A stretch of DNA of 41,820 nucleotides, taken from a virus. The DNA is taken from the UHGV virus genome UHGV-1357484; one strand, 5' to 3'. The stretch's first letter is position 1; each line of letters opens with the position of its first letter. The notes under the pieces are model-generated. The model did not search any database. It saw only the letters and a list, made by a program, of their open reading frames with translations, and had not been told where the DNA came from. Positions 12,283 to 13,158 of this stretch are shown here, in pieces. A program made the position numbers and the translations under genes.

Positions 12283-12462
12283 TTACACCTCCTGTTTTAC
12301 ATTTGCGTATTTTCGATCAATATCTAAGTTGTGGTATTCATCAAGTATCCATAAAATATAAGAATTCCGACTCATACCCTTTTTCTTTGCTTTTTCATCA
12401 ATTTTGTCAAACAATTCTTTGGGTAGTCTCAATGTAAATCTTATTTTCTTCGATTGCGTCAT
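12283..12462 (-). CDS. Ribbon-helix-helix (CopG/Arc-like) DNA-binding protein, 59 aa
   Basis: MTQSKKIRFTLRLPKELFDKIDEKAKKKGMSRNSYILWIL. AGAGGTG RBS 8 nt before ATG 12462. The C-terminal 14 aa and the 3' 44 bp are identical to those of the Cro-like gene. Confidence 0.55.
   Translation of the reverse strand: MTQSKKIRFTLRLPKELFDKIDEKAKKKGMSRNSYILWILDEYHNLDIDRKYANVKQEV
12284..12327. repeat. Perfect 44-bp direct repeat, copy 1 (TACACCTCCTGTTTTACATTTGCGTATTTTCGATCAATATCTAA)
   Basis: Identical to 12941..12984. It encodes the shared C-terminus DIDRKYANVKQEV, then the RBS and start of the next gene. Confidence 0.8.
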
Positions 12463-12584
12463 AATTGCGTCACCTCTTTCTGAGACAACTATATCATTGC
12501 GTCACTTTTTCGTCAATATTTATTTTGATGTTTTTTTAGTGGTACAATAGTGACATCAAATATACGTCAGAAGGTGGTGTTACT

Positions 12585-12752
12585 ATGGCTAGCATTTTAC
12601 CAAGATACACATTAAGAATTCCCGAAGATAAACTTGCGAAAATCCGTTATATCGCCGAAGTTGAAGGTCGTTCTGCAAATAAAGAAATAGAACGACTTAT
12701 TGACAAGCATATTTTGGAATTTGAAAAAAACAATGGTAAAATAAAATTGTAA
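12585..12752 (+). CDS. Ribbon-helix-helix (Arc-like) protein, 55 aa, on the plus strand
   Basis: MASILPRYTLRIPEDKLAKIRYIAEVEGRSANKEIERLIDKHI. GAAGGTGG RBS. A TGgTACAAT extended -10 lies at 12538-12548. Confidence 0.55.
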   Translation: MASILPRYTLRIPEDKLAKIRYIAEVEGRSANKEIERLIDKHILEFEKNNGKIKL

Positions 12753-12753
12753 T

Positions 12754-12936
12754 TTAATTTATTTCGCTGAGAATGGATAGGAAATACTTGTTGAGAGGTA
12801 TTCCAATTTTCTCAGCTCTTTTTTTATATTTCTCATGTTGCTCTGGTGTGAATAAGATAGTGATTCTTTCTGTATCTTGTCGGAGCGTTGTTTGTTTCGT
12901 GCTCTGCACGACTTTATCTGGAATGTTTAACTGCAT
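12754..12936 (-). CDS. Ribbon-helix-helix (CopG-like) protein, 60 aa
   Basis: ITILFTPEQHEKYKKRAEKIGIPLNKYFLSILSEIN. The start lies in the second copy of the junction cassette. Confidence 0.55.
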   Translation of the reverse strand: MQLNIPDKVVQSTKQTTLRQDTERITILFTPEQHEKYKKRAEKIGIPLNKYFLSILSEIN

Positions 12937-12939
12937 GAG

Positions 12940-13158
12940 TTACACCTCCTGTTTTACATTTGCGTATTTTCGATCAATATCTAAAAAGTCCGCGATTTTC
13001 AACTTATAAAAATCTGCTTTTTCACCGCGCTGATAGCCTTCGATAATTTGACGAGCATAAACAGATGATGTACCGATATGTTCAGCAATGTCTTTCAACT
13101 GAATATGCTTGCGTTTCATCATAACTTCTGCCAATTCTGCAAAATCCGTCACATACAT
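12940..13158 (-). CDS. cro: Cro-like XRE-family HTH regulator
   Basis: 72 aa with HTH IQLKDIAEHIGTSSVYARQIIEG. Divergent from the repressor gene at 13437. Confidence 0.65.
   Translation of the reverse strand: MYVTDFAELAEVMMKRKHIQLKDIAEHIGTSSVYARQIIEGYQRGEKADFYKLKIADFLDIDRKYANVKQEV
12941..12984. repeat. Perfect 44-bp direct repeat, copy 2
   Basis: Identical to 12284..12327. Confidence 0.8.

Follow-up and report, generated by a model that had tools for sequence, protein, structure and literature searches.

The window analyzed here is the whole of virus genome UHGV-1357484, a complete temperate phage genome of siphovirus type, 41.8 kb in length; its host is Enterococcus, as judged from the source names of identical proteins. 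Downstream of its cro-like gene (cro72) lie three small open reading frames (ORFs), which we call Y, arc55 and X and which encode proteins of 60, 55 and 59 amino acids (aa). An earlier reading of this region from the DNA letters (the sequence-only reading) had placed three ribbon-helix-helix (RHH) proteins here, at coordinates and on strands that we confirmed (Table 1), and had proposed that they form an unusual layered switch or serve as orphan antitoxins. We present evidence that the three genes make up one optional cassette, that short repeats within it are most likely operators of the Arc55 protein, and that Arc55 probably represses a promoter that reads into the early genes.

Table 1. Genes, predicted promoters, putative operators (O1 to O5) and repeats in and around the cassette. 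HTH, helix-turn-helix; RBS, ribosome-binding site; nt, nucleotides.
Feature	Coordinates	Strand	Remarks
DUF771 102-aa gene	11972-12280	-	First gene downstream of X; outside the cassette
X, 59-aa Arc-family RHH protein	12283-12462	-	Residues 1-45 native; residues 46-59 from cro
45-nt repeat, copy 2	12283-12327	-	X residues 46-59, stop codon and RBS
O1 and O2, tandem ATTGCGTCA twice, 11-nt period	12453-12472	+	Exact word copies
P_X, TTGACG-17-TGaTATAGT	12516..12488	-	From promoter scan; 10/12 consensus matches plus TG; sigma-A type
O3 and O4, tandem ATTGCGTCA and TTTTCGTCA, 11-nt period	12496-12515	+	O4, at 12507, is degenerate
P_arc, extended -10 TGgTACAAT	12540-12548	+	Read from sequence
O5, AGTGACATCA	12549-12558	unstranded	At the predicted arc55 transcript start
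arc55, 55-aa Arc-family RHH repressor	12585-12752	+	Inverted; co-oriented with CI, ImmA and int
Y, 60-aa RHH protein	12754-12936	-	Read from the cro transcript; convergent with arc55
45-nt repeat, copy 1	12940-12984	-	Last 14 codons of cro (LDIDRKYANVKQEV), stop codon and AGGAGGTG RBS serving Y
cro72, cro-like 72-aa HTH gene	12940-13158	-	Divergent from CI; context and insertion target of the cassette
CI-like HTH repressor	13437-13874	+	Divergent from cro
ImmA-type protease	13810-14367	+	After CI
Integrase	14410-15543	+	After ImmA

All three cassette proteins belong to the RHH superfamily

X and Arc55 matched the Pfam Arc family (PF03869) at 29.4 and 26.9 bits, above the curated cut-off of 20.4 bits, and PHROGs labels both as Arc-like repressors. 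Y fell below every Pfam cut-off: it scored 22.8 bits against the NikA-like model (cut-off, 27) and 14.4 bits against RHH_3 (cut-off, 21.6), and it gave no Arc match. Homologues of Y were few. A search of 5.8 billion proteins returned four, from Enterococcus and Listeria, and an exhaustive representative search returned six matches, three of them long repetitive proteins that we took as spurious. Y is clearly homologous to the proteins that occupy the same position in other elements. A profile of Y-position proteins matched AvtR (2.4e-4), Arc (1.1e-3), NikA (0.01) and also Mnt in the PDB; the top match, k-cTRP5, is a designed repeat protein and was disregarded. When the profile was aligned to the Arc55 family with hhalign, the match had 95% probability and E = 2.4e-8. 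Among the profile's 16 members, nine matched CopG_antitoxin, eight HicB and seven the NikA-like model.

The AlphaFold2 (AF2) model of Y has an extended segment at residues 24-30 followed by helices at 31-44 and 48-59, the helices with a predicted local distance difference test score (pLDDT) of 88-89. Almost all of the top ~38 Foldseek matches of this model in the PDB were RHH proteins. The best were NikA, Arc and CopG at 1.6-2.7 Å, with E values of only 0.3-1, as expected for a domain of 40 residues. We conclude that Y belongs to the RHH superfamily, yet by score to no curated Pfam family, and that all three cassette proteins are RHH proteins. On this point the sequence-only reading was right: X and Arc55 are recognized by Pfam Arc, and Y by both its profile and its predicted strand-helix-helix fold.

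Two stretches of the strongly conserved Arc55 family, LPRYTLRIP in the beta-strand and GRSANKEIE, are invariant. The DNA-facing residues of X in the window, R.T.R, are identical to those of Arc55. Contact with DNA by a dimeric, two-stranded beta-ribbon receives indirect support from the covariation of beta-strand and operator described below. We also considered that Y might be a non-DNA-binding "poison" subunit, on account of a hydrophobic residue at one DNA-facing position; this idea was dropped when Lachnospiraceae Y proteins were seen to have arginine there.

The genes form an optional cassette between copies of a 45-nt repeat

The three genes, in the order Y-arc55-X, occupy a 657-bp cassette that is bracketed by an exact 45-nt direct repeat. 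As a result of the repeat, cro and X have identical ends (LDIDRKYANVKQEV-stop), and the AGGAGGTG in each copy is the RBS of the next gene. Homologues of cro with 69-89% identity lack the cassette but retain the tail, in which the changes are synonymous and conservative; phage homologues of X align to residues 4-43 only. Since the tail is kept in cro homologues and absent from X homologues, we conclude that insertion duplicated 45 nt of the target and fused X to the cro tail; for the same reason we rejected the opposite possibility, that the tail is native to X. The fusion is in frame and the RBS of the DUF771 gene is preserved. In base composition the cassette is indistinguishable from its flanks.

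Natural cassette-less relatives exist among Enterococcus prophages. In loci L019, L023, L025, L026 and L027 the flanks are 99.3-100% identical to those in the window, only one 45-nt copy is present, and cro leads directly to the DUF771 gene. An exact-protein look-up found cro72 in 492 collection blocks, many without the cassette, and Arc55 and X in about 130. Conversely, locus L003 has the same cassette behind a different cro/CI allele, with only ~15 nt (AAACAGGAGGTGTAA) in common at the cro end. Presence/absence polymorphism and two internal promoter-like sites are the features of an accessory (moron-like) cassette, and both are found here. The 45-nt repeat makes it plausible that the cassette can be lost precisely, since the phage carries genes for RecT and a YqaJ exonuclease that could do this.

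These findings bear on the proposal of a layered switch going beyond the CI/Cro pair. That the genes add a second regulatory layer is still the best reading, but they lie outside the core switch, since they are missing from near-identical prophages whose cro and CI are the same.

The stretch after cro/DUF771 is an accessory hot spot in sister prophages (L023, L024 and L027, 3590-3812; L005, 2500-3774; L007 and L010, ~1500-2850). Its contents include a Tad2-like (PF11195) gene, a nucleoside deoxyribosyltransferase-like gene with a pRha antirepressor, and an HTH pair with Hypoth_Ymh (PF09509).

Tandem repeats overlap one of two back-to-back promoters between arc55 and X

Divergent arc55 and X are 122 nt apart, with back-to-back promoters between them. 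The extended -10 element that the sequence-only reading assigned to the inverted gene is present (P_arc), and relatives have TGnTATAAT at the equivalent position. On the other strand, P_X reads into X, the DUF771 gene and the recombination/replication genes. An Rfam scan gave only a sub-threshold group I intron match (21 bits; threshold, 50), which we treated as chance.

The intergenic DNA had been said to carry two kinds of repeated half-site. For one of them this holds: exact ATTGCGTCA occurs three times in the window (12453, 12464 and 12496), on one strand and within 52 nt, against ~0.5 copies expected per whole window, and two of the three copies have a trailing C. The other, GTGACATC, occurs once (12551-12558) and is a single variant site rather than a repeat. 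By sequence position, O4 lies over the -35 element of P_X and O3 in its spacer, O1 lies over the X start codon, and O2 falls between the X RBS and start; the O1 and O2 placement is repeated in relatives. Position over a promoter, together with the covariation described next, makes it credible that the repeats are operators, as had been suggested.

The repeat word follows the beta-strand of Arc55

Several lines of comparison identify the protein that is likely to read the repeats. In loci of the LPRYTLRIP class, TTGCGTCA-like words occur at a mean of 2.9 in the 170 nt upstream of arc55, against a background of 0.07. In 14 loci whose Arc55 beta-strand reads PRYTLR, a consensus block CATTGCGTCACTTTTGCGTCAA lies 82-96 nt upstream of arc55, and the opposite strand of this block is the X promoter TTGACG-17-TGATATAAT. 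The word changes with the beta-strand of Arc55: PRYTLR goes with TTGCGTCA, PKYTLR with GCCGTCA and PHYALR with GTTGTCA, the layout being otherwise unchanged. Viral contigs replicated the pattern. At least two TTGCGTCA words were present in 17/19 PRYTLR loci, GTTGTCA was present in three of the four PHYALR loci, and 13 of 16 PKYTLR loci had GCCGTCA while none had TTGCGTCA. The word is constant across the PRYTLR class even though the beta-strands of X and Y are not. Finally, a third Arc55 subfamily, with LLRYTLRVDR (group B), has neither X nor Y, yet ATGCGTCA/TGACGCAA still stand upstream of its arc55 genes, one of the words over the subfamily's own -35 element. From word frequency, class covariation, replication in viral contigs and persistence without X or Y, we conclude that the ATTGCGTCA-type repeats are most likely Arc55 operators.

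The LLRYTLRVDR subfamily looks chromosomal and comes from Oscillospiraceae and Ruminococcus (L049, L056, L063, L065, L066 and ~35 more loci). Its arc55 genes have no flanking RHH genes and are divergent from an unrelated gene of ~115 aa ("MKIAIIGSR...GGAKGID").

O5 behaves differently from the other sites. In a comparison of loci L001, L045, L054 and L128-L132, AGTGACATCA was identical in the window phage and in PRYTLR-class phages of Clostridioides difficile, and a near-identical ATGACATCA was found in the PKYTLR class. Because O5 is common to both Arc55 specificity classes, it does not track Arc55. It may belong to X or to Y, two candidates that covariation cannot separate.

The cassette recurs in phages and elements of Firmicutes

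The cluster is not the rarity that it had been taken for: the trio is also present in C. difficile phage CDKM9, in Staphylococcus, Ligilactobacillus and Lachnospiraceae, and in many IMG/VR contigs. Arc55 shares 67% identity with the "Arc-like repressors" of C. difficile phages CDKM9, phiC2 and phiMMP03 and 51% with Brevibacillus phage proteins; these genes, including those of Brevibacillus phages Jimmer1 and Jimmer2, are direct homologues. CDKM9 comes close to the window in having a -,+,- trio beside cro with CATTGCGTCAC.TTTGCGTCAA and TATAATAGTGACATCA elements. It differs in that its trio stands between two antirepressor genes, in the order cro, antirepressor, Arc(-), Arc(+), Arc(-), antirepressor. 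In Jimmer1 the three Arc-like genes next to cro follow a variant order (+,+,-).

Near a cro/CI pair the trio was found in Staphylococcus xylosus, Ligilactobacillus salivarius, Anaerobutyricum hallii and C. difficile. The recurring unit consists of a small RHH gene (-) that converges on or overlaps arc55 (+), which in turn is divergent from a second small RHH gene (-). The convergent Y/Arc pair is present in Listeria prophages, and positional homologues of Y occur in Listeria, S. xylosus, L. salivarius and C. difficile phages. By similarity, the flanking proteins sort by position: those at X are closest to others at X, and those at Y to others at Y. When one genome per species was scanned, 355 contained an Arc55 relative, almost all of them labelled Firmicutes, and IMG/VR had 71 viral contigs with one. 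Both partner genes usually accompany it there: X was present in 18 and Y in 19 of the 19 PRYTLR loci, and both in 16/16 PKYTLR loci.

Some elements hold two or three units in tandem between cro and a replication gene, as in L. salivarius (L033-L035, 2950-5300) and A. hallii (L030, 3720-5010). Each stacked unit has a word of its own at the 11-nt period, for example TGTTGTCA in A. hallii and TTGATATCA in the second S. xylosus unit (L036), within the same promoter layout. RefSeq merely names these genes "Arc-like repressor," and we came across no published account of the trio, its operators or its function. The cassette is common yet uncharacterized.

A probable second lock on the early genes

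The immI region of Salmonella phage P22 (mnt/arc/ant), known from the work of Susskind, Youderian and the Sauer laboratory, has divergent small RHH repressors around a compact promoter/operator region, with Mnt facing the lysogenic way and Arc first in the lytic-direction operon. The reading that we consider somewhat probable is that the window carries one accessory, self-contained regulatory cassette that adds a portable second lock on the early genes in the manner of immI, without a dedicated antirepressor. Arc55, expressed from its own extended -10 promoter in the lysogeny direction, would recognize tandem (T/A)TGCGTCA words at 11-nt spacing. In a lysogen, Arc55 on O1-O4 would keep P_X silent; P_X would be a strong, near-consensus promoter outside the control of CI. 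Once PR fires, RNA polymerase would pass through cro and Y and, meeting no terminator between the two convergent genes, continue antisense across arc55; Y, X or both could also act on the arc55 promoter at AGTGACATCA. Arc55 synthesis would then fall and P_X would open. We strongly infer from covariation and position that Arc55 represses P_X. It is presumably expressed in lysogens, where it would affect lysogeny and immunity; the antisense shut-off and the counter-regulation by Y and X are conjecture.

Several observations weigh against this scheme. X, with its Arc55-like R.T.R, could share the operators of Arc55. PR read-through already expresses the downstream genes in phages without the cassette, so the need for P_X is not obvious, and cassette-less phages are the majority, so any benefit must be conditional. 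The gene downstream of X varies among elements (antirepressor, HTH protein, RepA_N or DUF771) and indicates no single target process; a search across elements for a constant cargo gene in this position found none. Around arc55, where the stop codon of Y lies 1 nt from that of arc55, the scan found no terminator between the convergent genes. There is also no full-consensus TTGCGTCA word over P_arc, which makes the proposed control of arc55 a guess.

More tentatively, and here doubt outweighs belief, the cassette may be one of many portable and stackable RHH locks, a large family not yet described, that are carried by temperate phages and other mobile elements of Firmicutes. Each would combine a strong, CI-independent early promoter with its own lysogen-expressed repressor, and the orthogonal classes (R.T.R/GCGTCA, K.T.R/CCGTCA and H.A.R/TTGTCA) would act as secondary immunity barcodes. 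Recombination at the 3' end of cro would bring cassettes in and remove them; here the 45-nt repeat could make the loss precise and RecT-mediated.

Other explanations for the cassette

Could the cassette instead serve secondary (hetero-)immunity? Arc55 from a prophage would then act in trans on incoming cassettes of the same class, silencing their P_X and slowing their early genes, and the operator classes would be immunity barcodes. The existence of at least three repressor/operator specificity classes within an otherwise identical architecture fits this idea, as do the stacking of cassettes of unlike specificity in one element, the presence of the same cassette behind two cro/CI alleles, and the lysogeny direction of arc55. 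However, an incoming heteroimmune phage keeps an active PR that reads through the cassette, so repression of P_X alone may not block it. We regard this explanation as rather unlikely, and it overlaps the second-lock reading without excluding it. Copy control of the CopG/omega type, or autoregulation of the early operon, would make X the key autorepressor that sets the P_X replication/recombination operon, with arc55 an auxiliary antagonist. X is the first gene of that operon and has the same DNA-facing R.T.R as Arc55. It adjoins, upstream, a RepA_N initiator in L. salivarius, and in A. hallii a Rep gene lies further downstream; tandem direct-repeat operators over a promoter also recall omega of pSM19035. 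The operator word speaks against X in this role, for it follows the beta-strand of Arc55 and persists where X is absent. Nor is X followed by a replication gene in the window phage or the C. difficile phages. We find this explanation less likely still.

The cassette might also have no adaptive regulatory role here and be a harmless product of recombination, gained and lost through the 45-nt repeat. It is optional, it forms a clean indel in otherwise identical prophages, phage RecT and YqaJ exonuclease could delete it precisely, and its base composition is not distinctive. Such a hitch-hiker is hard to reconcile with the strong conservation of the proteins, both promoters and the operator layout across bacterial classes, with three ORFs that are intact in ~130 collection blocks, or with an in-frame X/cro-tail fusion that keeps the DUF771 RBS, and we give it little credence. 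Least likely of all is the role that the sequence-only reading had offered as its second suggestion, in which orphan antitoxins neutralize toxins of host or rival toxin-antitoxin or abortive-infection systems. The proteins do show weak, sub-threshold similarity to CopG_antitoxin, HicB and BrnA/VapB models, and an NCBIfam scan returned only sub-threshold RHH and antitoxin models; these antitoxin families share the RHH DNA-binding domain. The neighbors are RHH genes, cro and DUF771, with no toxin gene or toxin-family match in or beside the cassette, and PADLOC reported no matches. Nor do the proteins have a toxin-binding extension: they are bare RHH domains of 55-60 aa here and 39-58 aa in relatives, and the only C-terminal tail, the 14 residues of X, is a copy of the tail of cro. 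Conserved operators that overlap promoters and covary with the protein point to transcriptional regulation instead.

Relation to known RHH systems

Of the systems we compared, P22 immI is the one that the cassette appears to resemble most in its working, without being a strict member of that type. Both have a divergent RHH pair, in which Arc55 would correspond to Mnt and X to Arc, both have an operator inside the spacer of the lytic-direction promoter (O3 in P_X, by sequence position), and both form a second layer apart from a CI/Cro-type immunity region. In the C. difficile phage relatives an antirepressor follows X as ant follows arc; the window phage has DUF771 in its place, and the cargo varies among elements. 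Also unlike immI, the cassette has a third RHH gene, Y, which converges on the lysogeny-direction gene. Its operators repeat directly in tandem every 11 nt, whereas those of P22 are palindromes. It stands directly after cro, is optional, can be stacked two or three times, and is found in Firmicutes hosts.

Omega of plasmid pSM19035 and CopG of pMV158 are minimal plasmid RHH repressors whose binding sites are arrays of short repeats that overlap sigma-A promoters, and copG precedes repB. The cassette likewise pairs minimal RHH proteins with short repeats over a sigma-A promoter, here known from sequence alone, and in some relatives X, like copG, lies upstream of and adjoining a replication initiator. 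Unlike omega and CopG, the cassette belongs to a phage early region and has an inverted member and two back-to-back promoters. Its word of 8-9 nt with an 11-nt period also differs from 7-bp heptads.

If the second-lock reading is correct, an optional lock on the early genes, separate from CI/Cro, is present in many temperate phages of Enterococcus, C. difficile, staphylococci, lactobacilli and gut Clostridia. It could change prophage stability, induction kinetics and the cross-immunity of co-resident elements, all of which are relevant to phage therapy and to how prophage genes spread. Natural pairs with and without the cassette, and one cassette behind two CI/Cro alleles, are ready-made experiments. 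The covariation of beta-strand and operator, for its part, offers a small set of ~55-aa repressors that seem orthogonal, each paired with its operator, and a simple RHH recognition code; both would be of use in designing circuits for Gram-positive bacteria.

Phage context and neighboring genes

No closely related sequenced phage turned up when the region and 25 kb were compared by Megablast with 50,697 phage records, and tblastn of Y and cro72 against phages gave no match. The sole nucleotide match of window positions 1-25000 was a 67-nt segment (13336-13402), 85% identical to Listeria phages LP-030-2 and vB_Lmo_2389_typeII. It surrounds the putative PR and is unannotated intergenic DNA in both Listeria phages. 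The HTH matches of cro72 itself were weak (PHROG transcriptional repressor, 2.6e-4; Pfam HTH_3, 0.11).

In the 278-nt cro-CI intergenic region (13159-13436) the two best sigma-70-like sites face each other, one on the plus strand beside the cro start (13213..13240) and one on the minus strand beside the CI start (13393..13365). This arrangement would give convergent, overlapping PR and PL transcripts, unlike the usual back-to-back layout. The immunity allele of L003, which differs from that of the window, also has a plus-strand TTGACA promoter immediately beside cro.

The 102-aa protein encoded after X matched Pfam DUF771 at 2.5e-6. In its AF2 model the core (residues 40-98; pLDDT, 86-89) had its best compact matches to BldC, which is MerR/Xis-like (probability, 0.94-0.97; E, ~0.1). 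With this predicted winged-helix core, weakly similar to BldC and MerR-Xis proteins, it could be a recombination directionality factor of the excisionase type or a regulator.

A second small inverted gene lies further along the early operon (11552-11728, +). Its product of 53-58 aa belongs to phrog_6930, a family of unknown function. The gene shares 4 nt with the 3' end of 11725-11952 (-) and diverges from 11268-11495 (-), an alternating layout that resembles the RHH trio, but none of these proteins has an RHH signature. A moron-like position on the lysogeny strand, flanked by the integrase and lysis genes, is occupied by a 405-aa gene (15873-17090, +) that matches LysM weakly.

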